Assembly: GCA_964014485.1 (NCBI GenBank)
Contig: CAXHAT010000018.1
Location: 1-58,246, forward strand
From: an uncultured Deferribacteres bacterium
GTDB lineage: Bacteria; Zhuqueibacterota; Zhuqueibacteria; Zhuqueibacterales; Geothermadaptataceae
Direction of reading: 5' to 3'
Length of the DNA stretch: 58,246 nucleotides
A program made the translations under genes and the position numbers. Each line of letters starts with the position of its first letter. Position 1 is the stretch's first letter. The notes beneath the pieces were generated by a model. That model was not told the DNA's origin and did not search any database. It saw only the letters and a list, made by a program, of their open reading frames with translations. Positions 1,896-17,641 of the stretch are shown one piece after another.

Positions 1896-4800
1896 CTATT
1901 TCACCACCGTCATCCGCAAACTCTTCACGAAATTCTCACTTCTCAGAACATAATAGTAAATCCCTGAACTCACCGGCAGGCCGGATTCGTTGCGGCCGTT
2001 CCAGGCGGTTTGGTAGAAACCGGCGGGTTTGGTCTCGTTGACCAGCGTGCGTACGCGGCGACCGAGAATGTCGTAGACTTCGAGCACCATGGCTGCGTCT
2101 TTGGCGAGCTGGAATTTGATCCAGGTTTGCTGTGCGCGCGCCGAGAACGGATTTGGATAGTTTTGCGACAACTTGAATTCCTGTGGAGCTAAAACATCGA
2201 TCACGTCCTTCGTCCTCCGCCTTCCGTCCTTCGCGGCGAGAATCGCAGCGGATTCCACGCCAATAACGGCGGCGTAGGCATCGAAATACGTCTCGGCCAT
2301 CACGTCGTAGCCGCGGTCGTTCGGGTGCAGGTCTTCGGCCATGTAGTCGTTGCCGTTGCCCGTAAAAAGATCGGGATTGTTGTCGAACGGCGTGTAGTGA
2401 TCGACCATGTGAACCGGCTCAGACTGACCGGTGATCGCGCCAGCGGCAAAGTCGTCGATCAGGCGGATGATTTCGTCGTTCAATTCCACCGTTTCATTTT
2501 CCCGGTCGCCGCGCGGGACGATTTGGCTGACGAAGATGTGCTCGACAAAATTGCCTTCCGTGCCGTCGCGCCACTGCAGAACGTAATTCACCAATTCGCC
2601 GACATTGCCGGCGGTGGAGTGCGCCATTGTTTGGCCGCCGTTGTTGCTGTAGGGCGAAAGGTTGGTTTCCGCGGTTAAGTCGTTGGCGCCGAGATGGATC
2701 ATCACGACAGACGGCTGGTACAAGTCGAGCGTCTCGGCAAGATCGTTCACGCCAGTGCCGGAGCCGTTGCCAAAACTTTGCGGATAAAAATCTTCGAGGT
2801 TTTGGCCTGGATAAAAATGGCCTTCGTACGGCGACGCGCCTTCCGGCCCGACAAAATCGACGCTTTCCCCCGCTGAGTGCAGCATGTTATACAATTCCGG
2901 GCGGAAGCCCAAACCGTCGGAACTGCCGACGCCGTCGGTGATGGAATTGCCCACCAAAAGAACGCGCTTGCCCGACGCGCCCTCCGGCTTCAATTTCACT
3001 TCGATAGCGTTGATGATCGGATTTTCCAGCACGTTGTTGAAATCAATGTCCAAAACGCCGTCCGTGACCGAAACGTCAAAATTGTAAACCAGCGCCGCGT
3101 CGTGTCCGGCGACAGCGTGAACGTCGAGGTCGTTCAGTACTTGCTGGCCTTCCAAATCCACGTCGAACTTGCGCTTGCCGGATTCCTGGTAGTAGGTTTC
3201 GGCGAAAAGCAATTGCACCGAATACGTCCCGGATTGCGGCACGGTGAAACGATAATGATCGAAGCGGTAGCGATTGAATTGGTACAAAACGTCGTCTTCG
3301 GTGTTAGCCACCGGATCGCTGGTTTCGGCCGTTCCGCTGCGCGAGCCTTTGTAGCCCCACGAGCCGACTTGATACTCTTGATCCGCATCCCAATCGCGCC
3401 CGTCGACGCCGGTGTATTGCCCGTCCGCGACGTTGACGCGCTGCACCCAACTCGCTTCTTCGAGCGTCGTGAAGGTGAAATCATCACTCGTCGCCAGGTT
3501 GCCGCTGGCGTCGCGGGAGAGCACGCGGAAGTGGTAAGTGGTTGAAGGTTCCAGGTTTGAAAGTTGAACGCCGTGCTCAGTTTCCAGCGCAGGGTCGAGC
3601 GTGGTCGCGTCGCCGTAATTCGTGTCGAGGCCGTATTCGACCTGCGAATCCGAGGCTTCGTCGGTGTTCCAGACAATCGACGCGCTGCTCGAAGCGATGT
3701 TTTGCGCGGCGACGTTTGAAATGACCGGCGGCGTTGCGTCCGGCGCGGGCGTGGTGAAAGTAAAATCGCCGCTGGTGGCAAGATTGCCGGAAGCGTCGCG
3801 CGACTTGACCCGGAAATGGTACGTCGTCGAATGTTCCAAATTATCGAGTTGAACATTGTGCGCCGTGACTTGCGCCGGATCGACGGCGGTCGTGCTGCCG
3901 TAACTCGTGTTCGTGCCGTATTCGACCTGCGAATCCGAAGCTTCGTCGGTGTTCCAGGAAATCGTCGCTGATGTTTGCGTTACATTGCTCGACGCGACGT
4001 TTGAAATGACCGGCGGCACCAGATCCGGCCCGGCGGATTTGACTTCGATTCCGGAAATCATTGCGTTTTCGAGCACATTCTGGAAAGTCACGTCGAGCAC
4101 GCCGTCGGTGACTTCGGCTTCGAAAGTATAAACCAGCGCGACGTCATGGCCAACTTCGGCGATAATATCGAGGTCATCAAGAACGCGCGTTCCTTCGATG
4201 GAAACGTCGAAAATGCGCTTGCCCGCTTCTTCGTGATACTCTTCGCAAAAATGCAATTCCACCATGTATTCACCGGCGGACGGCACGGCAAAACGGTACG
4301 CATTGATGCGGTAACGATTGGTTTGGTAGAGCGCGTCATCCTCGGTGTCGGCGATGGCGTGATTCGTATCGCCGGTTCCGCTGCGGCTGCCGTCATAGCC
4401 GAATTCGCCGTCATCTTTCTGGTCGGCGCTCCAAATTCTGCCGTCCACGCCGGTGTATTCGCCGCCGCCAACATTGACCCGCCGCGCAAATCCCGGCGGC
4501 GCGCTGGTGGTGAAAGTAAAATCATCGCTCGTCGCCAAATTGCCCGCCGCGTCACGAGAAAGGACGCGATAATGATAAGTCGTGTTAGCGGTCAGTCCGG
4601 CCAAAGCCTGGCTGTGCGAAGTCACGAGATTCGGATCGAGAATGGTCACGTTGCCGTAATTTGTGTCGGGGCCATACTCGATTTGCGAATCCGCAGCTTC
4701 GTCCGTGTTCCAGACAATGGTTGCGCCGGTCGCGGAGATTTCGTTGGCCTGCACGTTTGAAATCACGGGCGGCGTTTCGTCCGGCGTTGCGGTGGTAAAA

Positions 4801-7800
4801 GTCTGGTCGGCGGAAGACGCGCCGTTGTTGGCGGAGTCCCAGTTCCAGACGCGGAAATGATAGGTTGTCGCGGGGGAAAGCCCGGTCAAAATCACGCTGT
4901 GCTGCGTGGTCAAATCGGTTTCCAACGCCGTCCAGGAACCGTAGTTTTCGTCCGCGCCAAATTCGATTTGCCGCTGGGCCGGTTCGTCGGTCTGCCAGGT
5001 AATTGTCGCGGATTCGTCGGAGATATTTGTGACTTGAATGTTGGAAATCACCGGCGGCGTTGCGTCGTCCGAGAGCCAGCGCACGCGGTAAACGTTCGCG
5101 TGGGTTTTGCCGAATTCGTCGAAGCCGTTTTCGCCGTAAAGATCGGTAAAATAAAGCGCGTCCGGGCCAAAGGCGAGGCCGAGCACCGTCGCGACCCCGG
5201 CGCCGGTGTAGTTCAGAAACTCGGTTTGATTGACGACCGCGCCGCTTGCGTCCAGTTCAAATGCCTGGATCTTTTTCCCCGAAGAATCGGGGCCGGTGAT
5301 GAACGGATCGGCGACCAAAGCCGCGAACAGCCAGCCGGGAAATTGCGGATCGAAAGGCGTGTTTTCGTTAAAATCAACCGCGCCGGGCACGACGACTTCG
5401 TCCCAGTATTGAATCGCGCCCGTCGTCAAATCGGGATCGATCAAACGCCAGCCGTGATCCTGCCCCGCCTCGATTTTCACCAAACGGTCGCCGGTGTCCG
5501 GGCCGTTGTCGCTGACGTAAAGTTTGCCGTCCGCCGCACGCCACGCACCGCCGAAGGGGTTGCGCATCCCGGTGGCGTAAACGTAGGAATCGGGAAACGG
5601 ATTGTCGCCGGGTTTCGAACCGTCGAGATTGAGCCGCAGAATTTTGCCGCGCAAATCGTTCGGATCGGGCGCGCTCGCGGGCTGCTGGCCGTCGCCGACG
5701 TTAGCGTAGAGCAAGCCGTCCGCGCCGATGGTGAGCGCCTGGATTTGGTGCGAATAATCCGCCGGAATCCCGGTCAAAACATCTTCTTGCGATGAAGACG
5801 TGCGCCCGCCGTCCGTGCTTTTCAAACGAGTAATCTTGCTGAAAATCGCACCGCCGTCTTCGTAATCCAGCGAAACGAGCACGTCGCCGTTGTTAGGATC
5901 GACGACGACGCCGCGCAGTCCGGCCTCGGTTTCGCCGGGATCGAAATTGAGCAAACCGCCGGCGTAGGTCGTTGTTTCGTAATTGCGCTGCACCATCACC
6001 ACCTCGCCCTGCTGCAAAGTGACGTAAAAATATGGATCACTCTCGTTCGGCCCGGGATTCGGGATAAACGCAATGTTCAACGGCAAGTGAAGATCGGTGA
6101 CGACCGGGACGATCTCAAAATTCTCCGGCACGCTCCAACTGTTTTGCGTGTCGCGAATGGTCAAAGTATAAGCCTGCTCTAGCGTCGCCGCGGGGTTTTG
6201 GCTGTCGCTGACGCGAACGGTGAAATTGAAGCCGCCAATCGCCGTTGGCGCGCCGGTGAGCGCGCCGTCCGTTCCCAGAACCAAGCCGTCCGGCAATGCC
6301 CCGCTGGCGATCTCAAAATTGTAGTCCGGCAGCCCGCCCCACACCACGATCTGCTGACTGTAGACAATGTTGATCTCACCGTCAGACAGACCGGTTGTGC
6401 GAAATTCCAGTGCGCGGAACGGCGCAACCGGCGTTTGAACCGCGCCTTGATCGATCCACTTCGCGATCAGGTCGATTTCGTCGTCGGTTAAATTGGCCAT
6501 TTTGCTGCCGACCGACGGATTCGGATTGACGATTTTTTCATGCAGCCAGCTCATCACATGATCGAAAGGCTTGACGAGCAGATAGGTCGGCTCCTGCGTG
6601 CTGGCGACGTTCACGGTTTGTGCGAAAGAAACTTCCGCCGACAAATCCAGATCTGCGGGCGGCGACGGACCGGAATGACAGCGGACGCAATTGCGATCAT
6701 AAATTCCTTGCACGTTGGCGTAGGCGACGTTGCCGTCGGAAGCTGTTGTGAAGAGAAAATCATCGCTGGTCGCCAGGTTGCCACTCGCGTCGCGGGAATG
6801 GACGCGATAGTGGTAGGTGGTTGAAGGTTGAAGGTTTGAAAGTTGAAGGTTGTGTTCGGTGATCAGTGTTGGATCGAGCGCGGTCGTGCTGCCGTAATTT
6901 GTGTCGAGGCCGTATTCGACTTGTGAATCGGCGGCTTCATCCGTGTTCCAGGAGATCATCGCGGAAGATTGCGTCAGCCCGCCCGCTTGCACGTTCGAAA
7001 TCACCGGCGGCGTTGCGTCGATTTCCTGGGTCGTGAAAGTTAAATCCTCACTTGTCGCCAGATTTCCGCTCGTATCTTTCGACAAAACGCGGAAATGATA
7101 GGTCGTTCCTGAACTCAACCCGCCGACGCCGTGCGCATGGTTTTGCACGAAAGCAGGATCGAGCGTCGTCATGCCGCCGTAGGTTGCGTCCGGGCCAAAT
7201 TCGATTTGCGAATCGGCGACTTCGTCGGTGTTCCAGGTCACGGTCACGCTGTCCGGGAAAATTTCCGTCACGACAACATCAGAAATATCCGGCGGCGTGA
7301 GGTCGGGAATGATGGTGGTGAAGGTAAAACCGCTGCTGAGCGCGAGATTGCCGCTTTCGTCTTTCGAGAGGGCGCGATAGTGGTAGGTCGCGCCGGGCGT
7401 CAAGCCGGTCAACTCAACGCTGTGCGACGTCACCAACGCCGGATCGAGCGGACTGATGCTGCCGTAATTCGCGTCGAGGCCGAACTCGACCTGCGAATCG
7501 GCGGGTTCGTCCGTGCTCCAAATGATGGTCGCCGTTTCCGCGCCAACTTCCGTCGCCGCGACATTGCTGATTTGCGGCGGGGCCGTGTCCGCCGCCGAAC
7601 GCACTTCGATGGCGCTGATGATCGCGTTTTCCACGATTTTTCTAAACTCAACATCGAGCACGTCGCCGGTCACGGTCACTTCAAAAGTATAAACCAACGC
7701 CGCGTCATGCCCGGCTTCGGCGATAACGTCGAGATCATCGATAACATTTTGGCCTTCGAGATCGACGTGAAATCGGCGCTTGCCCGCCTCGGTGTGATAT

Positions 7801-10800
7801 TCTTCGCAAAAATGCAGCGTCACGATGTAGTCGCCCGGTTCAACGTCAAAACGGTAGGAATCGAGACGGTAGCGATTGGTTTGGTACAAAACGTCGTCGT
7901 CGGTATTCGCAATCGGATCGTTGGTGTCGCCGGATCCGCTGCGTGAGCCAACGTAGCCGTACGTTCCCGCGCTCCATTTTTTGTCCGCATCCCAAATTTG
8001 TCCATCGCCGTCGGTGTAGCTGCCGCCGCCAACATTCACGCGCTGCTCGTAACTCGGCTGCGGCGGGGCGGGCGTGGTAAAAGTGAAATCATCGCTGATA
8101 GCCTGATTGCCGCTCGAATCGCTTGAAAGCACGCGAAAATGGTAGGTCGTATTCGGCGACAAATCGCTCAGTTGCTGATTGTGCGCCGTGACCAAGTTCG
8201 GATCGTGCGCGGTCAAATTGCCGTAAGCCGTGCTCACGCCAAACTCAACTTGCGAGTCCGCCGCTTCGTCGGTGTTCCATGAAATCGAGGCGCCGGTTGA
8301 AGTGATGTTTGACGAAACGACGTTTGAAATCACCGGCGGCGTTTCGTCGCGTTCCAGCGTGGTGAAAGTGAAATCCGCGCTCAAACCGAGATTGCCGCTG
8401 GCGTCCTTTGAGCGGGCGCGAAAATGGTAGGTCGTGTTCGGTTCAAGCCCGCCAACGCCGTTTTGATGCGCCGTCAAAAGCGCGGGATTCAAGGCGGAAA
8501 AACCGCCGTAATTTTCGTCCAAGCCAAATTCGATTTGATCGTCCGCCGCTTCGTCGGTGTTCCATGTCACGGTCACGCTGTCCGTAAAAACTTCCGTGAC
8601 GACGACGTCCGAAAGCACCGGCGGCGTTTCGTCCGGCGCCAAAGTCGTGAAAGTAAAATCCGTGCTTTGCCCCAAATTTCCGCTGGCGTCACGGGAGAGC
8701 GCGCGGAAATGATAGGTCGTGTTTGAAGCCAAACCGCCAAAACCGACGGTGTGCGTTGTTGTCATCGACGGATCAAGCGCGGAAAAATTGCCGTAGCTTG
8801 CGTCAAGGCCAAATTCAACCTGCGAATCGGAAAGCTCGTTCGTGTTCCAGGTGATTTTCACGCTGTCCAAATAAACTTCCGCGACGGCGACGTTTGAAAA
8901 AGTCGGCGGGGTCAAATCCGGCGCATCCGTCGTAAAAGTGAAGTCGGCGCTCATGCTCAAATTGCCGCTTTCGTCGCGGGAGAGCGTGCGGTAGTGGTAA
9001 GTTGTTCCGGGTTGAAGGTTGGAAAGTTGAACGTTGTGCGCCGTCACCAGAGAAATGTCGAGCGTGGTGATGTTGCCGTAATTTGCGTCGAGACCAAATT
9101 CGACCTGCGAATCCGCCGGTTCGTTGGTGTTCCAGGAAACGGTTGCGCCGGTTTCGCCAATATTGCTTACGTTGACGTTTGAAATCTCCGGCGCGACGCC
9201 GTCCGCTTCCGAGCGTACTTCAATGCCGCTAAGAATAGCATTTTCAAGCACTTTGCGGAAATCAACATCAAGCCTGCCGTCCGTTACTTCGGTTTCAAAT
9301 TCGAAAACCAGCGCTGCGTCGTGCCCCGCTTCTGCGATTACGTCAAGATCGTTGATGACCTGTTGGCCTTCAATATCAACGTCGAATTTTCGTTTGCCGG
9401 ATTCGGTGTAATACTCCTCGCAAAAATGCAATTGCACGAAGTACGTACCGTTTTCAACCGTGAAACGATAGCCGTCGATACGGTAGCGATTCGTTTGATA
9501 AAGCGCGTCCGCGTCGGTGTTGGCGATGGGATCGTTGGTGTCGCCGACGCCGCTTCTTGAGCCGTCGTAGCCCCAATCATTTCCGGCTGACGCTCGATCC
9601 GCCGCCCAAACCGTCCCGTCCGGCGCGGTATAGTCGCCGCCGCCGACATTGACGCGCTGCAAGTAGGACGGCCCGCCAACCGCAGCCGTCCGAAAAACAA
9701 AATCTTCGCTCGGCCCGCGATTGCCCAATTCGTCCGTCGACCACACGCGATAATGATAAATCGTATTTTCCTGCAAGCCGGTCAATTCCTGGTTGTGCGC
9801 AAGCGTGAGCGCCGGATCGAGGGTCGTGAAACTGCCGTAATTTGTATCGAGACCGTACTCAACCTGTGAATCGCCGGGTTCGTCCGTGTTCCAGGAAATC
9901 GTCGCGCTGTTCATGGCGATGTTTTTTGCGGTGACATTGCTGAACGCGGGCGGCGTCTGATCTTCCGGCCTGGTGGTAAAAGTAAAATCGTCGCTGGCTG
10001 CTTGATTTCCTCGCAAGTCGGTTGAAAGAACGCGGAAATGGTAAGTGGTCTCGGGCAGCAAGCCGCCAAGTCCTTGCTCATGCTGGTTCACTGACTCGTC
10101 TTTTCCGACCACCGAGCCGTAATTCGCATCCAAGCCAAATTCGACGTACGTGTCCGCCGCTTCATCAGTATTCCAAACAATGGTGACGCTGTCGGGGAAA
10201 ACATTGCTGGTCTGCACGTCGGAAATGGTCGGAGGCGTAAGATCAGGATCAGTGGTAGTGAAGGTAAAATCTTCGCTCACCGCACGGTTGCCGAATCTGT
10301 CAGTTGAAACAGCTCTAAAATGATAAGTCGTCGAGGGCTGCAAACCGCCAATGCCGTCAAAATGCGTCGTCACCAAATCCGGATCGACTGGCGTGAAATT
10401 GCCGTAGTTTGCGTCCAAACCGTACTCGATCTGCGAATCCGCCAATTCGTCCGTCGTCCAGGGAATGGTCACGCTGTCTTCGAAAACTTCCGTAACGGTC
10501 ACGTCGGAAATGGTCGGTGGGACGAGATCAGGCAGCGTCGCAAAGACGCAATCGGCGCTGACGGACTGATTGCCGTTCAGGTCTTTTGACAAAACGCGTA
10601 AATGGTACGTTGTGTTCGGCTCCAGCCCGGTGATCGTTTGATCGTGGTTTAGCACCAAGGCGGGATCGAGTTCAGAAAAAGTCCCGTATGATAAATCCAG
10701 GCCGTATTCTACTTGTGAATCGGCGTTCTCGTCCGTATCCCAAGTCACGTTCACGGAAGTTTCGGTAATATCGTTGAGGCGAATGTTCGAAATTTCCGGC

Positions 10801-13800
10801 GGAATCTGATCGAGCGGAAAAGTCGTAAAAGTCATGTCGCCGCTGACGGCCAGGTTCCCGGCTCCGTCGCGCGAGAGCACGCGAAAATGATAAGTCGTCT
10901 CCGGTTGCAAATTCTCAAGTTCCTGGGAGTGCATGAAAACAAGCGTATTATCCAACGCCGTCGTGCTGCCGTAATTTTGGTCAAGACCGTATTCGATTTG
11001 TGAGTCGGCTTTTTGATCGGTATCCCAGGTAATCGTCGCGCGATCAGACGATGTGGGCGCAGCAACGATATTCGAAATGGTCGGCGCATTGTTATCACCC
11101 ACGCGCAATTTCACTTCGATGGCGGAAACCAGGGCGTTCTCGATGACATTCCGAAAAGTCACGTCCAGGACGCCGTCCGTCACTTCAACGTCAAAATTGC
11201 GGACATAAGGCGCGTCGTGACCGACCTCGGCGTGAATATCGAGATCATCGAGAACAGTGCTTCCTTCCAGGCTGACGTCAAAAACGCGAAGTCCGTCATC
11301 CTTGTAGTGCGTTTCGGCAAAATGCAATTCAACGGAATAAGTGCCGCTGCCTGGGACGGTGAATCGGTAATCCTTGACGCGAAAACGGTAATTCTGATAG
11401 AGCGCGTCGTCCTCAGTTTGCAGAATTTCGTCGCTGGTCGAGCCGGTCTGAGTGCCGCCGCCGTCGTAGCCCCAAGAGCCTTCAAAATACGATTTATCGG
11501 CGTCCCAGATCCGTCCGTCCCCGCCGGCAAACGAACCCGCGCCGACATTGACGCGCTGGGTGTAATGGGGCGATTCGAGCGTCGTAAACGTGAAATCTTC
11601 GCTCTGGCTTTGATTGCCGTCTTCATCCTTTGAAATCACGCGAAAATGGTAAAGCGTCGCCGGAAGCAGGCTCGTGAGCGTCTGGCTGTGCGCCAGCACC
11701 GGATTCGTGTCGAGCACGGTTGAATTACCGTAATTTGCGTCGAGACCGTACTCAATTTGCGAATCAGAAGGTTCATCAGTGTTCCAGACAATGATTGCGG
11801 TGGTGGAAGCGATGGAATTTACCGAAACGCCGGAGATAATCGGTGCGGTCATGTCAGGCGGCAGCGTGGTAAAACTGCGATTCGAACCCTTCGATTCATT
11901 GCCGTTTGCGTCGCGCGAAACCACGCGATAGTGATAAGTCGATTGCGGGCTTAATCCAGTAATCTGGTGCGTGTGCGCCGTTCGTAATTCCGTGTCCAAG
12001 TCAGAAAAATTGCCGTAAGTTTCATCCGCGCCCCATTCGATTTGCGAGGTCGCCGCTTCATCCGTGCTCCAAGTGATCGTGGCGGTGCGCTGGGAAACAA
12101 TGTCTTCCTGAACGCCAAAAACGAAGGGCGGGGTCGCGTCGTTCAAACCCTCGGTCGAGAGCAAAAGCGCCATGTCCGGGCCTTCGCCGAGCGGTGAGTT
12201 AAATGTGCGCGGTTGGCCATAAGTAATTTTCTCTTCAGCATACTCTTCAAAAGTCGCCGGATTGATCCAGCGCGGCAGAAGCTCGCCGGGGCCGCCGTCG
12301 ATCAACAATTCAACGCCGCCGCCGTTCGGCAAATAAACGACAAACTGCTCGTCGGCTGGAGAAGCGGAGCCCAAAGCGTCGCCGGAAACGATAAAACTGT
12401 TGTCCGGCGCAAGATTTGGCCAATTGACCCGCTGGGTAAAAAATTCATACAAAAAACTGTACTGGCTGGTCTCGGTTTCGCTGCTGTTCACCTCAACTTC
12501 CGCCGATTTGATCATGCTCGTGCCGTCGAAACCGGTCGCGAGAAACGCGCCTGAAACCACCAGCCGCCACGCACCGCGCCGCAAGTAATCGGCGTCAAAT
12601 TGCTGATTGTTTGGCGGATTGTTGTTTCTGCCGTCGAAATGCGCGTAGCCGTATTCCAGGTTCAAGACCGGCTTGTTATGAATGCGATCATATGCCACGC
12701 CTTCTTCCAGACCGGCTGCGTCGCCGAAGCGCGGCAGAAAATCGGGGCCGGAATTCGCACCGTAATGCTGCTGGATGAGTACGTCGATGTCGGGGTAATC
12801 GCCGTAAAGATCGCCCGCCGTGCCGCCCGGAACAATCGGCTGGCCTTCCAAGCTGTAACCGGCGAACGGATGCGTGCCTATGAGGTGGCGGTAAGGATCG
12901 ATGCTGCGAATAAACGTCGCGCGCGCCTTCGACCAGTCAACGTCCGTACCCTGAACCAGGTATTTTCCGTCCGGGTATGTTTCGTATTCATTGGCGATTG
13001 TCCACAAGGCCAGATTTGGGTAGGCCGTATAGCGCGCGACGAGATAACGCAGGAAGTTTTCTTGCTGCTCGTCCGTCATCGGCGGAACGTGGAAAAGGCC
13101 CGCTGCGTCGTAATAATTGAAAAGGATCAGCTCAAACGTCATGCCTTGCGCTAAACCGAATTCGAAGATTGAATCGAGCTTGGCAAAATAGGCCGGATTG
13201 ATGCGGTCGCGATCCGGCGCCGTGCTCGTGCCTTCGTAGGGAATATTCTCATTGAATTCCCATTCCACTTCGATGCGCATGTTGTTGAAATTCTGCGACT
13301 TATGTGCCGAAATTGCCGCTTCATAATCAGATTGCTCGACGTCCATAATGCCGTAGTTTGTCGTCGCCATCCAAAAAAACGGCGTGCCGTCGTCATGCTC
13401 GAGAATATATGGATTCGCTGCGCCAACGCGAATGAATCCGTGCTCCGCAACAGAGGGTTCCGCAGTGAATTCACCGAAAGCGGAGAGACCGTTGTCGCTG
13501 CCGGAAATGTTGAACGTCCATAAACCGGGGGCCGTTGGCGTAAAACGCAGCTTCCAATTGTCGCCGCCGTCCCAGTAGCCGGGAACTTCGTAATTTTCGC
13601 CGGACGGTCCGGTAAAAACGCCGGTGACACTGGCGTCCAGCCATGGATTGCTGTAGTTTCCTTCATCCACAAAATTGAATTCGACAGGCCGCCACTGCAC
13701 GGTTTCCGAAGCGTTTCCGATGACCGTGATATTTGCTGAACCGGATTCTCCGAGACCGTTTTGCGCGGTTGCTGAAATTGTGTTTTCGCCTTCAATCAAC

Positions 13801-14057
13801 GAAATCGTTGCTTGAAACGCGCCGTTTTGAACCGGCACGCGCACTTCGTTGACGTCAATCGAATCCACGGTCGCATCATCAACGGTTCCTTCAACCAATA
13901 ACGATTGTCCCAAAACGGTGGCGCCGTTCTGCGGCGATGTTATTTGCACGTTGGGCGCGATGGGAAGTGAGTTCGCGAAAATTGTAGAGGGTAAAGCGGC
14001 AGGAATCAAAATGAGGGCAAAGGCGAGCAATTTACTCGATGCAAAACGGTCTTTCAT
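1896..14057 (-). CDS. giant secreted multidomain carbohydrate-active/redox protein (Ig, DUF5060, DUF4038, collagen-binding-like, 18x FN3-like, 5x malectin, cytochrome c, Ig, glucose/sorbosone dehydrogenase, SGNH, T9SS CTD)
   Basis: Uninterrupted ORF. ATG at 14057 with GAGGA RBS and a signal peptide. Motifs: DDGTPFFW / WTIANEY / NLEYGY, W-x-T-D-E...TYHFRV repeats, QRVNVGG...LHFxE...R.FDV malectins, CVRCH, GMRNPFG, GNSITDG...DLHP, SQNYPNPF...SGIYYY. Confidence 0.92.
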   Translation of the reverse strand: MKDRFASSKLLAFALILIPAALPSTIFANSLPIAPNVQITSPQNGATVLGQSLLVEGTVDDATVDSIDVNEVRVPVQNGAFQATISLIEGENTISATAQNGLGESGSANITVIGNASETVQWRPVEFNFVDEGNYSNPWLDASVTGVFTGPSGENYEVPGYWDGGDNWKLRFTPTAPGLWTFNISGSDNGLSAFGEFTAEPSVAEHGFIRVGAANPYILEHDDGTPFFWMATTNYGIMDVEQSDYEAAISAHKSQNFNNMRIEVEWEFNENIPYEGTSTAPDRDRINPAYFAKLDSIFEFGLAQGMTFELILFNYYDAAGLFHVPPMTDEQQENFLRYLVARYTAYPNLALWTIANEYETYPDGKYLVQGTDVDWSKARATFIRSIDPYRHLIGTHPFAGYSLEGQPIVPGGTAGDLYGDYPDIDVLIQQHYGANSGPDFLPRFGDAAGLEEGVAYDRIHNKPVLNLEYGYAHFDGRNNNPPNNQQFDADYLRRGAWRLVVSGAFLATGFDGTSMIKSAEVEVNSSETETSQYSFLYEFFTQRVNWPNLAPDNSFIVSGDALGSASPADEQFVVYLPNGGGVELLIDGGPGELLPRWINPATFEEYAEEKITYGQPRTFNSPLGEGPDMALLLSTEGLNDATPPFVFGVQEDIVSQRTATITWSTDEAATSQIEWGADETYGNFSDLDTELRTAHTHQITGLSPQSTYHYRVVSRDANGNESKGSNRSFTTLPPDMTAPIISGVSVNSIASTTAIIVWNTDEPSDSQIEYGLDANYGNSTVLDTNPVLAHSQTLTSLLPATLYHFRVISKDEDGNQSQSEDFTFTTLESPHYTQRVNVGAGSFAGGDGRIWDADKSYFEGSWGYDGGGTQTGSTSDEILQTEDDALYQNYRFRVKDYRFTVPGSGTYSVELHFAETHYKDDGLRVFDVSLEGSTVLDDLDIHAEVGHDAPYVRNFDVEVTDGVLDVTFRNVIENALVSAIEVKLRVGDNNAPTISNIVAAPTSSDRATITWDTDQKADSQIEYGLDQNYGSTTALDNTLVFMHSQELENLQPETTYHFRVLSRDGAGNLAVSGDMTFTTFPLDQIPPEISNIRLNDITETSVNVTWDTDENADSQVEYGLDLSYGTFSELDPALVLNHDQTITGLEPNTTYHLRVLSKDLNGNQSVSADCVFATLPDLVPPTISDVTVTEVFEDSVTIPWTTDELADSQIEYGLDANYGNFTPVDPDLVTTHFDGIGGLQPSTTYHFRAVSTDRFGNRAVSEDFTFTTTDPDLTPPTISDVQTSNVFPDSVTIVWNTDEAADTYVEFGLDANYGSVVGKDESVNQHEQGLGGLLPETTYHFRVLSTDLRGNQAASDDFTFTTRPEDQTPPAFSNVTAKNIAMNSATISWNTDEPGDSQVEYGLDTNYGSFTTLDPALTLAHNQELTGLQENTIYHYRVWSTDELGNRGPSEDFVFRTAAVGGPSYLQRVNVGGGDYTAPDGTVWAADRASAGNDWGYDGSRSGVGDTNDPIANTDADALYQTNRYRIDGYRFTVENGTYFVQLHFCEEYYTESGKRKFDVDIEGQQVINDLDVIAEAGHDAALVFEFETEVTDGRLDVDFRKVLENAILSGIEVRSEADGVAPEISNVNVSNIGETGATVSWNTNEPADSQVEFGLDANYGNITTLDISLVTAHNVQLSNLQPGTTYHYRTLSRDESGNLSMSADFTFTTDAPDLTPPTFSNVAVAEVYLDSVKITWNTNELSDSQVEFGLDASYGNFSALDPSMTTTHTVGFGGLASNTTYHFRALSRDASGNLGQSTDFTFTTLAPDETPPVLSDVVVTEVFTDSVTVTWNTDEAADDQIEFGLDENYGGFSALNPALLTAHQNGVGGLEPNTTYHFRARSKDASGNLGLSADFTFTTLERDETPPVISNVVSSNITSTGASISWNTDEAADSQVEFGVSTAYGNLTAHDPNLVTAHNQQLSDLSPNTTYHFRVLSSDSSGNQAISDDFTFTTPAPPQPSYEQRVNVGGGSYTDGDGQIWDADKKWSAGTYGYVGSRSGSGDTNDPIANTDDDVLYQTNRYRLDSYRFDVEPGDYIVTLHFCEEYHTEAGKRRFHVDLEGQNVIDDLDVIAEAGHDAALVYTFEVTVTGDVLDVEFRKIVENAIISAIEVRSAADTAPPQISNVAATEVGAETATIIWSTDEPADSQVEFGLDANYGSISPLDPALVTSHSVELTGLTPGATYHYRALSKDESGNLALSSGFTFTTIIPDLTPPDISDVVVTEIFPDSVTVTWNTDEVADSQIEFGPDATYGGMTTLDPAFVQNHAHGVGGLSSGTTYHFRVLSKDTSGNLATSEDLTFTTQEIDATPPVISNVQAGGLTQSSAMISWNTDEAADSQVEYGLDTNYGSTTALDPTLITEHNLQLSNLQPSTTYHYRVHSRDASGNLATSDDFLFTTASDGNVAYANVQGIYDRNCVRCHSGPSPPADLDLSAEVSFAQTVNVASTQEPTYLLVKPFDHVMSWLHEKIVNPNPSVGSKMANLTDDEIDLIAKWIDQGAVQTPVAPFRALEFRTTGLSDGEINIVYSQQIVVWGGLPDYNFEIASGALPDGLVLGTDGALTGAPTAIGGFNFTVRVSDSQNPAATLEQAYTLTIRDTQNSWSVPENFEIVPVVTDLHLPLNIAFIPNPGPNESDPYFYVTLQQGEVVMVQRNYETTTYAGGLLNFDPGETEAGLRGVVVDPNNGDVLVSLDYEDGGAIFSKITRLKSTDGGRTSSSQEDVLTGIPADYSHQIQALTIGADGLLYANVGDGQQPASAPDPNDLRGKILRLNLDGSKPGDNPFPDSYVYATGMRNPFGGAWRAADGKLYVSDNGPDTGDRLVKIEAGQDHGWRLIDPDLTTGAIQYWDEVVVPGAVDFNENTPFDPQFPGWLFAALVADPFITGPDSSGKKIQAFELDASGAVVNQTEFLNYTGAGVATVLGLAFGPDALYFTDLYGENGFDEFGKTHANVYRVRWLSDDATPPVISNIQVTNISDESATITWQTDEPAQRQIEFGADENYGSWTALETDLTTQHSVILTGLSPATTYHFRVWNWDSANNGASSADQTFTTATPDETPPVISNVQANEISATGATIVWNTDEAADSQIEYGPDTNYGNVTILDPNLVTSHSQALAGLTANTTYHYRVLSRDAAGNLATSDDFTFTTSAPPGFARRVNVGGGEYTGVDGRIWSADQKDDGEFGYDGSRSGTGDTNHAIADTEDDALYQTNRYRINAYRFAVPSAGEYMVELHFCEEYHEEAGKRIFDVSIEGTRVLDDLDIIAEVGHDVALVYTFEAEVTDGVLDVTFQNVLENAMISGIEVKSAGPDLVPPVISNVASSNVTQTSATISWNTDEASDSQVEYGTNTSYGSTTAVDPAQVTAHNVQLDNLEHSTTYHFRVKSRDASGNLATSGDFTFTTPAPDATPPVISNVAAQNIASSSASIVWNTDEASDSQVEYGLDTNYGDATTLDPALETEHGVQLSNLEPSTTYHFRVLSRDASGNLATSDDFTFTTLEEASWVQRVNVADGQYTGVDGRDWDADQEYQVGSWGYKGSRSGTAETSDPVANTEDDVLYQFNRYRFDHYRFTVPQSGTYSVQLLFAETYYQESGKRKFDVDLEGQQVLNDLDVHAVAGHDAALVYNFDVSVTDGVLDIDFNNVLENPIINAIEVKLKPEGASGKRVLLVGNSITDGVGSSDGLGFRPELYNMLHSAGESVDFVGPEGASPYEGHFYPGQNLEDFYPQSFGNGSGTGVNDLAETLDLYQPSVVMIHLGANDLTAETNLSPYSNNGGQTMAHSTAGNVGELVNYVLQWRDGTEGNFVEHIFVSQIVPRGDRENETVELNDEIIRLIDDFAAGAITGQSEPVHMVDHYTPFDNNPDLFTGNGNDYMAEDLHPNDRGYDVMAETYFDAYAAVIGVESAAILAAKDGRRRTKDVIDVLAPQEFKLSQNYPNPFSARAQQTWIKFQLAKDAAMVLEVYDILGRRVRTLVNETKPAGFYQTAWNGRNESGLPVSSGIYYYVLRSENFVKSLRMTVVK
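2995..12140 (-). repeat. intragenic array of ~95-aa FN3-like (purple acid phosphatase N-terminal-like) repeats interspersed with malectin domains
   Basis: 18 copies of PP.IS.V....W.TDE.ADSQ.EYG.....H...L..L.P.T.YH.RV.S.D..GN...S.DFTFTT counted in the translation; ~285-bp DNA periodicity with shared stretches such as GCCGTATTCGACCTGCGAATCCGA near 3630 and 3915. Boundaries approximate. Confidence 0.9.
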
Positions 14058-14484
14058 GCGATCCTCGGTGTAGTTAACGTGCCGTTGTCTGTTCAACTCG
14101 AAAGCGTTTACATCTCATTCCAACACAGCCATGGCGGTTGTGAGCGTCGGAAAGAGAACAAAAAGCGCAAGCGGCTTAAATTGGGCGCACCAAATCGACG
14201 AATTCTTCGCCGGGAGCCCGTTCGAAAAGCACTTCGCTTTCACAAAAGCTGATCAGTCCATTGATCGTTTGAAAGCAGGATCGTCCCTGAAAATAGACAA
14301 AATATAATCGGATGAGACGTCCGTACTCTTCATGCGGCGAATCAGTCCGATTTTTTTAGAAATGTTCTGTTTATGGTTTGGTCGCCAGATTAACTTTTAA
14401 TAGCTGCAAAGCATGTTATTGCGCACTTCATTAGGCGTTAGAAGACGAAGATTTGACTCGATTGTGTAAATCCGTGCGGCGCAT

Positions 14485-15471
14485 TTATTTCAAAACTTCG
14501 GTTTGAGGGTTGTTCAAGCTCCAGTTATACCAAAATGTGTCGAAGCCGGTAAACACGCGCAACTCGGATTTATCATTTTTTTCAAATGTTTTTGATTCCG
14601 GATTGAAAACAAGGCCGGACGCCGTGCGCCATTTTCCGTCCCGCCGCACAAATTCGTCGTTTTCTGCAATAAACGCGACAGTCGATTCAAACATTTTTGA
14701 TTTTGGCGCGCGATACAGAAAAAGACTCGCCTCGCCAACATCAAACATCGCTCCATTTTTCAGTTTTTTCTGTGCTATTGCGTATGCGCGCCCTTTGTAA
14801 TGGAAGGCAAAAACAGGTTCCTTAGTGCGCATGCGCTTATCGTTGGCAAAAAGTCCGCGGTACCCTTCCGGTGAAAGGAAATAACCTTTGTACCCGTCGC
14901 GTCCGTCTTCACGCCCGTCAACGGAGAGCACGAGGGTTTCGGGATGTTGCGCAATCCAGTCTCGCCAGCGCATTTTTTTGCCGTAAGGCAGTTCCTGCAT
15001 TTTTGTCCCTAGTTCGCTTCCTGCAATAGCGGCGCTTTTCATCAATGACCAATAGCTGTCGGTCTCAACGTCCTGCATCACAAGCGAAGCGTTGATGAGT
15101 CCGCCCGAAGGCTCAAAGTGAAATTCTTTGCCGTTGTATTCTCTGCCGTAAACTACGGCGGCATTTGCCAGCGGTCACCAAACTGCCGCGAATGACACTT
15201 CTCCAATGCGATCATTAACCACTTCATGGGCGTTCAATAGATTCAGACTGTACGCTCTTGCCTGCCCGTTAATCACGACTCCCAACACCCAACTGTTTTT
15301 GCTGATTTTTGCGTCAGCGGCAGGCACGTACACTGGCTCATGAATCGCGGCGATTCGGCCTCGAGGTACAATTTGCCGGAAATCTTTCATCGGATTTTCA
15401 GTCTCTTGCGCAAAGGCGCTCGAAGTGACAAAAAGTAATCCCAGGACAACAGCTTTTTTTAGTTTTTGCAT
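14485..15471 (-). CDS. DUF3179 family exported selenoprotein (Sec at codon 99, TGA 15175-15177)
   Basis: ORFs 15175-15522 and 14485-15081 are in the same frame, separated only by TGA. Readthrough gives HEVVNDRIG...AVW-U-PLANAAVVYGRE...FEPSGGLINASLVMQDVETDSYWS, with U at the first Cys of the family CPLC motif. Signal peptide; GGAG RBS before ATG 15471. Confidence 0.88.
15145..15159 (-). promoter_or_regulatory. candidate bacterial SECIS hairpin
   Basis: mRNA GCCGUA-GUU-UACGGC: 6-bp stem starting 15 nt after the UGA with G first in the apical loop, matching bacterial SECIS geometry. Confidence 0.65.
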
Positions 15472-15633
15472 GCTCATCTCCATACAGGTCATTCTAAAAT
15501 CACAAGATTCACAACACGGCAATAGAAAAGATTATTCGCTAAAAACGGCCAAATCGCAGTCATTTTTGAAACGGCAAGGTTCGGCGTATTGAGCGCCGTG
15601 AAATTAATTATTCTTCACGAATTTTTCTTTGAC

Positions 15634-15709: not shown

Positions 15710-17641
15710 ATGAAACACCGCTCTGTCATCAAGCCTCATTTTCTGCTGATTTTCGCATGTCTTCTCTTTGGCGCCTCCCTCCTGCCCGCTCGACAAAGCT
15801 CGTCTCAAACATCCTTGGAAAATGCTTTGTCTTACATTCTTTCAAGCGATCAAAAAAGTTTTGATCTCTCTCGAGCAATTCTTCTCCTTTCCGTCGAAGC
15901 CAAACGAGAAATTTTCAATCAGGAGTTCAATCTTCAGCGTTACGCCGACGAGCTAGACCGATTTGCTCGCGAGGCCGCCGAAGAGCTCGCCGGAATCGAT
16001 GATCCGGAAAAACGAGTTCTGGCGCTCAACAAATACTTCTTCGAAAAGCTGGCCTTCTCAGCCGACGCGGCGGATACAAACGGCGTCAACCCGGACAATC
16101 TTTTTCTCCCCGCCGTGCTCGACCGCAAGAAGGGCTATTGTCTATCGCTGTCCATTCCATACCTTTGCATTGCGCAACGGCTCGATTTGCCTTTTTACGG
16201 CGTCCCGGCTCCGGGGCATTTTTTTATCCGCTATGATGACGGCGCAAAGCAGATTAACATTGAGGCGACCAATGGCGGCGCCAAGCTTACCGATGATTTT
16301 TACGCCGAAAAATACAACTTGTCGCTGCCGCATGATTTTTATTTAAAAAACGTTGGTCTGAAGCGAACCGCCGGCGTTTTTCTCAACAATTTGGGCAATA
16401 TTTATAACAGAAATAACCGCCCCATCCAAGCGATTCAGATTTTCGAAACCGCGCTGAAATTAAACCCGGACTATCCCGAAGCGCTCACGAATTTGGGAAG
16501 CGTTTATCTTAAAACCGGACAAAAAGAGCAAGCGCTGCAGCGGCAAGTCCGTGCGGTCGAATTATCACCGAACCTGGTGGAAGCGCAGGTGAATTTGGCC
16601 AATGCCCAAATCGCCAACGGGAATTTCCTGGAAGCGCGTCTCGCTATACGCCGAGCTTTGAGCCTCGATCCCAAGCGTGCCACCGTTCATCTCGCGCTGG
16701 CAAAAGTTTACTTTGAACAGCAGCATTTCAATAATTCGCTTGAGACGCTGAGAAAGGTCGTCTCGCTCGATTCAAAGCTCACGCCGGCGTACATTTTAGC
16801 GGGAAATAATTATCGGGAACTCGGCGAAGCGCAGCGCGCATTGGAGCAATTTCAAAAAGCAATCGCCCTCGCCCCGGAAGATTTAGACGTCTGGCTAAAT
16901 TTGGCCTACCTGTACATTGATCTCAACAAAAACGCTGACGCCCTGCGCGCCTACGAAAAAGCGCTTTCGCTTGATCCCGATATTCCGGAAGCGTTGGTTA
17001 ATTATGGAACGCTGCTGCGGCAATACGGCCGAATCAAAGAAGCGGTTGGCGCCCTGGAAAAGGCGGCGGCTCTGAAACCCGACCTTTCATCAGCGCATTT
17101 CAATCTCGGTATGTTGTATTCAAAGCATCTTGATCGCCAGGACGACGCGATTGCCGCTTACAAAAGCGCTCTCTCTTTCCAGCCGGATTTGGCGGAAGCG
17201 CATCATAATCTCGGGGTTTTGTACCACTTGAAAAAAAACGATTTGACGCGCGCCGCGGATCATTACAAACTTACCTTGCGCCTAAAGCCCGACGTTTTTG
17301 AAGCGCATCTCAATCTTGGCATCGTCTACTTTACTATCGGCAAGGTGAGACAGGCAAAAGCGTCTTTGGAGAAAGCCCTAAAAATCAACCCAAAATCGGA
17401 AGAAGCGCATTTCAATCTCGCTCTTATTTATGGTGAAATAGGCGATACAAAACGCCAGCTCGCCGCCTACCACAAAGCCGTCACCCTGAACCCGAAAAAC
17501 GGGACGGCGCATTACAATCTCGCCATCGTTTACTACAACCAGCAAGCATTCGAGAAATCAATTAAATTCTGCGACAACGCACGCAGGCTTGGTTACCCAA
17601 TAAACCCGGACTTTTTGCAAGCGCTGCAAAGACATCGTTGA
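15710..17641 (+). CDS. exported transglutaminase-like (SirB1/Transglut_core2) protein with TPR array
   Basis: Signal peptide; LNKYFF...NLFLPAVLDRKKGYC...PGHFFIRY; then many TPRs (AxxNLG...AL.L.P). Confidence 0.85.
   Translation: MKHRSVIKPHFLLIFACLLFGASLLPARQSSSQTSLENALSYILSSDQKSFDLSRAILLLSVEAKREIFNQEFNLQRYADELDRFAREAAEELAGIDDPEKRVLALNKYFFEKLAFSADAADTNGVNPDNLFLPAVLDRKKGYCLSLSIPYLCIAQRLDLPFYGVPAPGHFFIRYDDGAKQINIEATNGGAKLTDDFYAEKYNLSLPHDFYLKNVGLKRTAGVFLNNLGNIYNRNNRPIQAIQIFETALKLNPDYPEALTNLGSVYLKTGQKEQALQRQVRAVELSPNLVEAQVNLANAQIANGNFLEARLAIRRALSLDPKRATVHLALAKVYFEQQHFNNSLETLRKVVSLDSKLTPAYILAGNNYRELGEAQRALEQFQKAIALAPEDLDVWLNLAYLYIDLNKNADALRAYEKALSLDPDIPEALVNYGTLLRQYGRIKEAVGALEKAAALKPDLSSAHFNLGMLYSKHLDRQDDAIAAYKSALSFQPDLAEAHHNLGVLYHLKKNDLTRAADHYKLTLRLKPDVFEAHLNLGIVYFTIGKVRQAKASLEKALKINPKSEEAHFNLALIYGEIGDTKRQLAAYHKAVTLNPKNGTAHYNLAIVYYNQQAFEKSIKFCDNARRLGYPINPDFLQALQRHR

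Follow-up and report, generated by a model that had tools for sequence, protein, structure and literature searches.

Two apparent open reading frames (ORFs), at 15175-15522 and 14485-15081, lie side by side in the window, the 58,246-nucleotide stretch of DNA from an uncultured Deferribacteres bacterium that was analyzed here. The gap between them is 93 nt, or 31 codons. The question is whether they are pieces of a broken gene, two separate genes, or one intact gene in which a TGA codon is decoded as selenocysteine (Sec). The last was the original prediction.

Gene Structure and Genomic Context

Both ORFs are on the minus strand, which was unstated in the original prediction. Translation of 15474-14485 revealed one frame of 328 codons with a TAA stop, the gene being at 15471-14485, and its sole internal stop is the TGA at 15175-15177 (codon 99). 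The two ORFs are indeed one frame broken only by this TGA. The product has 328 residues, with U99 within AAVW-U-PLANAAVVY, and has zero cysteines. The profile of the DUF3179 family (PF11376), which has 11,070 representatives at 50% identity, matches the separate halves at positions 3-61 (49 bits) and 66-292 (101 bits) in the same register. The joined frame matches positions 3-292 of 292 with 172 bits against the curated cut-off of 27, which bears out the claim that the 31 intervening codons are open and match the family.

Of the possible starts, the ATG at 15471 is favored because a Shine-Dalgarno-like GGAG (15478-15481) is 6 nt upstream of it; the alternatives are ATG (15477 or 15483) or TTG (15522). 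By eye, residues 1-21 (15409-15471) are a likely signal peptide, with a basic start, a hydrophobic core, and A-F-A ahead of Q22. Residues 1-30 show low confidence in the AlphaFold model, and the N-termini of orthologues are similar. It is likely from these features that the DUF3179 protein is exported via a cleavable signal peptide.

The DUF3179 gene stands alone between a divergent gene for a tetratricopeptide repeat (TPR) protein and a large secreted-type gene. The former (15710-17641, plus strand) encodes 643 residues, in which many TPR repeats come after a transglutaminase-like core. The latter (1896-14096, minus strand) is an ORF of 4066 residues with apiosidase-like, many fibronectin-III, malectin, glucose/sorbosone dehydrogenase, GDSL, and C-terminal FlgD-Ig domains, and it looks like a giant secreted carbohydrate-active protein. 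A promoter and terminator scan gave results at chance level.

Conservation of the TGA Codon

A scan of species genomes kept 79 loci, of which 57 are full-length and over 40% identical and 22 are distant and partial. The codon at the site in the 57 full-length orthologues is TGA in 54, and TGC, TGG, and TCT in one each. The expected conservation of TGA was therefore observed, and the TGY alternative is borne by one orthologue (TGC). The 54 TGA orthologues come from several phyla at 41-58% identity and have both halves conserved; a second stop was observed in only one of them (L086). Their motif is UPLAN in 53 and UPLSN in one. The site in the 22 distant partial loci is occupied by Ser (20), Gly (1), or Cys (1).

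The three exceptions among the full-length orthologues differ in their context. The TGG orthologue (L085:5208) has an intact hairpin and a genome with selA, and is either an error or a loss. The TCT orthologue (L089:5253) is a long-branch copy. The genome of the TGC orthologue (L065:5262) shows partial selA and selB matches only.

Other samples gave a similar picture. A 401-genome sample of another phylum yielded 20 matches, 18 with TGA, and all 12 newly found ones have TGA. Among 60 relatives, six matches were better than E 1e-100, each with one TGA, at codon 99; five of these six duplicate loci of the species scan and were not added to the counts. In run X1 of the public reads, one contig covers the TGA without any difference; it is not counted as support, since X1 may be the source sample. 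No RNA data set was listed as containing the sequence.

At the protein level, the 120 best matches have Cys (59), Ser (4), or a gap (1) at the site, and 56 do not reach it. U99 is thus aligned with Cys, as anticipated, in 59 of the 64 best matches that cover the site. The 56 short ones, which do not extend back as far as codon 99, are as expected for pieces called downstream of TGA; public databases do split this gene, as had been foreseen for standard gene callers. Records of named close homologues carry the labels KSB1, Calditrichota, and Acidobacteriota. Across 54 Sec and 58 Cys sequences, position 99, E83, N86, P100, L101, N103, and D134 are invariant. The CPLC-type motif expected at the site was not observed in this protein. 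The predicted Sec99 is instead in W-U-P-L-A-N, that is UxxA, with no second Cys in a cysteine-free protein.

DUF3179 Paralogues and a Possible Sec/Cys Exchange

Seven further DUF3179 genes are present in the genome. In two short ones, TGA likewise occupies the site and is accompanied by a stem resembling that of the main gene. These two (L012, G000:C28:33052-33432; L013, G000:C32:1153-1614) are short single-repeat lipoprotein-like paralogues with U-P-L-V, and their stems, GCUG/CAGC and ACUG/CAGU, enclose the loop CCGUGUA. L009 and L011 (G000:C115:7904-9978) are a tandem DUF3179 pair in which the motif is CEAC and a signal peptide is not obvious. By eye, they are upstream of likely acyl-CoA dehydrogenase and adenylation enzyme genes. 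P0149 (1587 residues) and P0160 (1004 residues) contain six and four DUF3179-like stretches, respectively.

A quick tree was built with the site masked and has a long outgroup branch. It places the majority of Cys forms together in a single branch within the Sec forms, tentatively implying the direction from Sec to Cys. Within one cluster at 90% identity, full-length Cys proteins occur together with 225-residue pieces such as a TGA would leave, all known as proteins only. Such a mixed cluster suggests repeated exchange between Sec and Cys.

Sec Machinery of the Genome

The original prediction implied selA, selB, selC, and selD elsewhere in the genome, and all four were found. The assembly is 8.4 Mb, 97% complete, with 0.8% contamination. 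Profile searches detected selA (567 bits), selB (332 bits), and selD (377 bits), each above its cut-off. ARAGORN detected one tRNA-Sec with a UCA anticodon (L146, G000:C55:33588-33683), and RF01852 matched it at 68.8 bits, above the cut-off of 47. The retrieved sections of PMC9012183 report selABD in KSB1 genomes and state that selC is absent there. If the source genome belongs to KSB1, that absence may be an annotation miss.

The selD gene (L004, G000:C68:143-1069) has its own in-frame TGA in an N-terminal C-G-U context and is a predicted selenoprotein gene. A hairpin, AGCCC-GGUC-GGGCU, begins 12 nt past this TGA. UGA thus has both meanings in this genome, because selD reads one TGA internally and ends at another.

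Among the 54 genomes with a TGA orthologue, 50 have selA above the cut-off; none of the 22 distant-locus genomes, which are small, related assemblies, does. Three of the four TGA genomes in which selA is not above the cut-off have selB, so 53 of the 54 have selA or selB. Within the class, this co-occurrence says little, because 55 of the 61 genomes sampled from the class have selB regardless.

It is very improbable that the UGA at codon 99 is read as Trp, Cys, or Gly, through a changed code or leaky readthrough, or that the two halves are separate proteins. The orthologue with TGG (L085) would fit a non-Sec reading, and in-frame GTG and ATG starts past the TGA would fit separate halves. However, tRNA-Sec is the only UCA-anticodon tRNA found, TGA still terminates selD, and the residue aligned with U99 is Cys, not Trp. 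A break between the halves would moreover cut one predicted domain.

The SECIS-like Hairpin

In bacteria, Sec is inserted by SelB carrying Sec-tRNA, which binds to a hairpin located 3' of the UGA. By this mechanism, a hairpin in the coding region of the DUF3179 gene, acting as a Sec insertion sequence (SECIS), would recruit SelB-Sec-tRNA, and UGA 99 would be translated as Sec. The sequence GCCGUA-GUU-UACGGC at 15159-15145 begins 15 nt 3' of the UGA, the position given in the original prediction. The inner A-U pair and 3-nt loop of that earlier drawing did not hold, the pair being formed in only 13 of 53 distinct rows of the alignment described below. The predicted bacterial SECIS (bSECIS) at 15145-15159 is a 5-bp stem, GCCGU/ACGGC, with the loop AGUUU, as indicated by conservation and a codon test. 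Its loop begins 21 nt past the UGA (20 nt spacing), and the loop of the family is N-G-U-N-U.

According to the accessible text of PMC13188914, the bSECIS model has a loop of 3-9 nt, a stem of 4-16 bp, a G followed by U among the first loop positions, and a distance of 16-37 nt from the UGA, with an energy limit of -7.5 kcal/mol. The hairpin here has a 5-nt loop, a 5-bp stem, G in the first two loop positions, and 20 nt spacing. Its folding energy is -6.7 kcal/mol for the bare 15-nt hairpin, -8.2 with 4-nt flanks, and -12.3 for 36 nt. Taken alone, the hairpin is modestly above chance (z of -1.0 to -3.1 depending on the segment folded). A loose SECIS-like pattern follows ~3.3% of the TGA triplets of the genome in a 5% sample. 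A strict hairpin pattern follows 32 of 306,538 TGA triplets, a count not used as a probability because the pattern was defined after seeing the gene.

The support for the hairpin comes from conservation, the fold of the single gene being only modestly above chance. In the alignment of 55 TGA genes (53 distinct), 89% of the cells of the 5-bp stem are paired, and nine cells are changed on both sides in a compensatory manner. None of 500 shuffles was paired to as high a degree, and slid controls gave 14-62%. One pair of the stem, at columns 20-32, fails to form in 29 of the 53 rows, and the RNAalifold consensus has only three pairs at -0.43 kcal/mol. The conserved element is thus considered to be a short stem with an N-G-U-N-U loop, as the pair at columns 20-32 is often broken and the inner A-U pair is unconserved.

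Because the peptide A-V-V-Y-G forces much of the stem, a codon-usage test was performed, with amino acids fixed and with the own codon usage of each gene. In 48 of 53 genes, Watson-Crick pairing holds at all four core positions, versus 7.3 expected; with G-U allowed, the four pairs form in 53 of 53 versus 25.5 expected. Such stem counts overstate the case, since the rows are related and not independent. All six rows with Ser (AGY) use GCT for Ala, which restores the pair, and GCT is used at 10-17% elsewhere in those genes. The six rows fall in three places of the tree. At the level of codon comparison, these results show that synonymous selection acts on the hairpin.

Two Cys genes were seen as DNA (L065 and L125), with one broken pair each, too few to serve as a hairpin control. 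A search for further Cys-gene DNA as a control yielded one locus in a metagenome scan and no new Cys gene in the phylum sample.

That the TGA is a nonsense change or an assembly error in a pseudogene can practically be dismissed: the assembly was made from reads of low depth (about 6 in the best public read set) and the public annotation carries a 197-aa fragment (P0002), but the same TGA at the same codon in most orthologues of several phyla, the conservation of both halves with a single case of a second stop, and the synonymous selection on the hairpin argue against it, and conservation is considered to have refuted it already. The TGA at 15175-15177 is almost certainly decoded as Sec in one intact gene, as judged by comparative analysis. 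The alignment of U with Cys, the Sec machinery, and the conservation of TGA (54/57) all support this selenoprotein reading of the DUF3179 gene.

Predicted Protein Structure

The AlphaFold model from a 112-row alignment has a pLDDT of 93.2 and a pTM of 0.88. A single-sequence model (pLDDT 39.5) was unusable. Two domains are predicted. The first, residues 69-169 (14965-15267), is Rieske-like and holds U99 without the CxH and CxxH motifs. The second, residues 200-328 (14488-14874), has neither Sec nor Cys.

When the model was compared with 48,161 solved chains, 18 matches reached a Z of at least 5, and every one of them is a Rieske-type protein. The best match is 3dqy (91 residues of model 69-169, rmsd 3.0), with a Z of 7.0, and a Z below 8 may reflect a common arrangement. 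Foldseek gave no match at E 0.001 or better and returned propeller-type noise only. A profile-profile comparison with 30 Rieske domains was not significant (probability 0.55%); its best alignment puts residue 99 on the first ligand Cys. No match to PF00355 was found in the 112 aligned members, and no solved relative was found by protein or profile search at E up to 10. The modelled fold of residues 69-169 thus bears a moderate resemblance to Rieske domains. A Rieske cluster is not expected, because there are no CxH/CxxH ligand motifs and no Cys.

Residues 200-328 show a weak profile-profile match to the first domain (E 0.002, probability 14%), and the two short paralogues of this genome cover only the first half of the PF11376 profile. 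The second domain is probably a diverged repeat of the first. Among the 57 orthologues, 32 have no Cys past the site and 22 have a distant Cys pair in the second domain, which is likely structural.

In the secondary structure of the model, strands 84-89 and 92-99 form a hairpin, which would bring His82-Glu83 beside U99. His82 is observed in 114 and Glu83 in 113 of 134 family domains.

Possible Function

It is quite possible, although tentative, that the protein is an exported enzyme in which a single selenolate reduces an oxidized substrate, with an outside thiol partner restoring the selenolate afterwards. After removal of the signal peptide, the protein would sit in the periplasm. Sec99 would lie in the Rieske-like domain, which has no cluster, and the conserved His82-Glu83 would be on the strand next to it. 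The selenolate would attack an oxidized substrate, such as a peroxide, sulfoxide, or disulfide, and the outside thiol partner would re-reduce Sec99. An outside partner is proposed because the protein has no cysteine.

It is unlikely, by comparison, that Sec serves as a soft ligand which, together with His82 and Glu83, binds or detoxifies a periplasmic metal or metalloid (Hg, Cu, or As) without redox cycling. A single selenol with no resolving Cys, the family-wide conservation of His82 and Glu83, and the weak profile alignment of residue 99 with the first metal-ligand Cys of Rieske domains are consistent with such binding. On the other hand, the second Rieske ligand loop appears to be D-x-E-T, as read from the sequence, and the gene clusters listed for the 58 subfamily loci, inspected by eye, show no recurring genes for metal resistance or arsenic.

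The idea that Sec is a non-redox nucleophile of a hydrolase or transferase, helped by His82 and Glu83, is more doubtful still. Ser replaces Cys/Sec in 20 of the 22 distant homologues and 23 of the 134 family domains, an exchange that can occur with catalytic nucleophiles. Nevertheless, other branches carry CxxC at the site (CPLC, CTLC, or CEAC), a typical redox signature, and PMC9312934 describes the majority of bacterial selenoproteins as presumed redox proteins.

The gene neighborhood of the 58 orthologous loci showed no broadly common partner. An ECF sigma factor-like gene is divergently upstream in 10 of the 58 loci (L046, L048, L054, L056, L059-L062, L064, and L069), mostly with anti-sigma-like and PDZ-like genes, as read by eye; this group is absent beside the gene at 15471-14485. 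Matches to carotenoid oxygenases in NCBIfam (E 0.0005-0.14) were weak and were set aside as chance, and no NCBIfam match was near the cut-off. A query of the protein atlas with the Cys homologue P0003 returned DUF3179 clusters only.

Extending the proposed selenolate enzyme to the whole family is more speculative. DUF3179 could possibly be a Rieske-derived scaffold in which the iron-sulfur cluster was lost while the position of its first ligand was retained for a catalytic selenol. On that view, the UPLAN branch would be a widespread, exported selenoenzyme that does not depend on cysteine and has a fold other than that of thioredoxin, with Sec as the older state and Cys as the later one.

Comparison with Known Systems

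That Sec-containing DUF3179 members exist, as the original prediction stated, agrees with published tables. DUF3179 is listed as a selenoprotein family with the motif UxxC/T in the retrieved parts of both PMC9312934 and PMC13188914, and those listings give no function or structure for it. Both cite the Olavius symbiont study PMC1976440, in whose accessible text DUF3179 is not named. In PMC9230427, a DUF3179 protein appears as a table mention only. NCBI names some homologues "DUF3179 domain-containing (seleno)protein". A literature search across the main text of articles found no DUF3179 functional study and no UxxA form.

The gene at 15471-14485 is therefore well supported, on sequence grounds, as a UxxA, Cys-free variant of a listed selenoprotein family. 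The call is sound and amounts to an annotation fix, not a discovery, and the UPLAN gene brings no new recoding principle. It corrects a systematic annotation error, as 56 of the 120 best database matches are without the N-terminal part with the likely active site, and it adds the UxxA form to a listed but unstudied family. With one Sec, no Cys, and a confident model, the protein is a clean test case for the role of DUF3179.

Like the listed DUF3179 selenoproteins, the protein covers nearly the whole PF11376 profile, has Sec at the first motif Cys, and has a predicted coding-region SECIS 3' of the UGA. The listed ones are UxxC/T, whereas this one is UxxA (Ala102). Since C or T at the third residue past Sec is absent from all 54 TGA orthologues, the UPLAN gene is classed as a variant. 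Compared with the bSECIS model, as far as the retrieved text of PMC13188914 describes it, the geometry is alike, but the stem here is very short and the bare energy is just short of the limit.

In the predicted structure, the first domain is similar to the Rieske ferredoxins of toluene dioxygenase (3dqy) and naphthalene dioxygenase (2qpz) and to the nitrite reductase small subunit (3c0d), over 91-97 residues with rmsd of 3.0-3.8 and Z of 6.5-7.0. In contrast to these Rieske proteins, to which it is 7-9% identical, the DUF3179 protein is without CxH, CxxH, and Cys, and adds a predicted signal peptide and a second domain.
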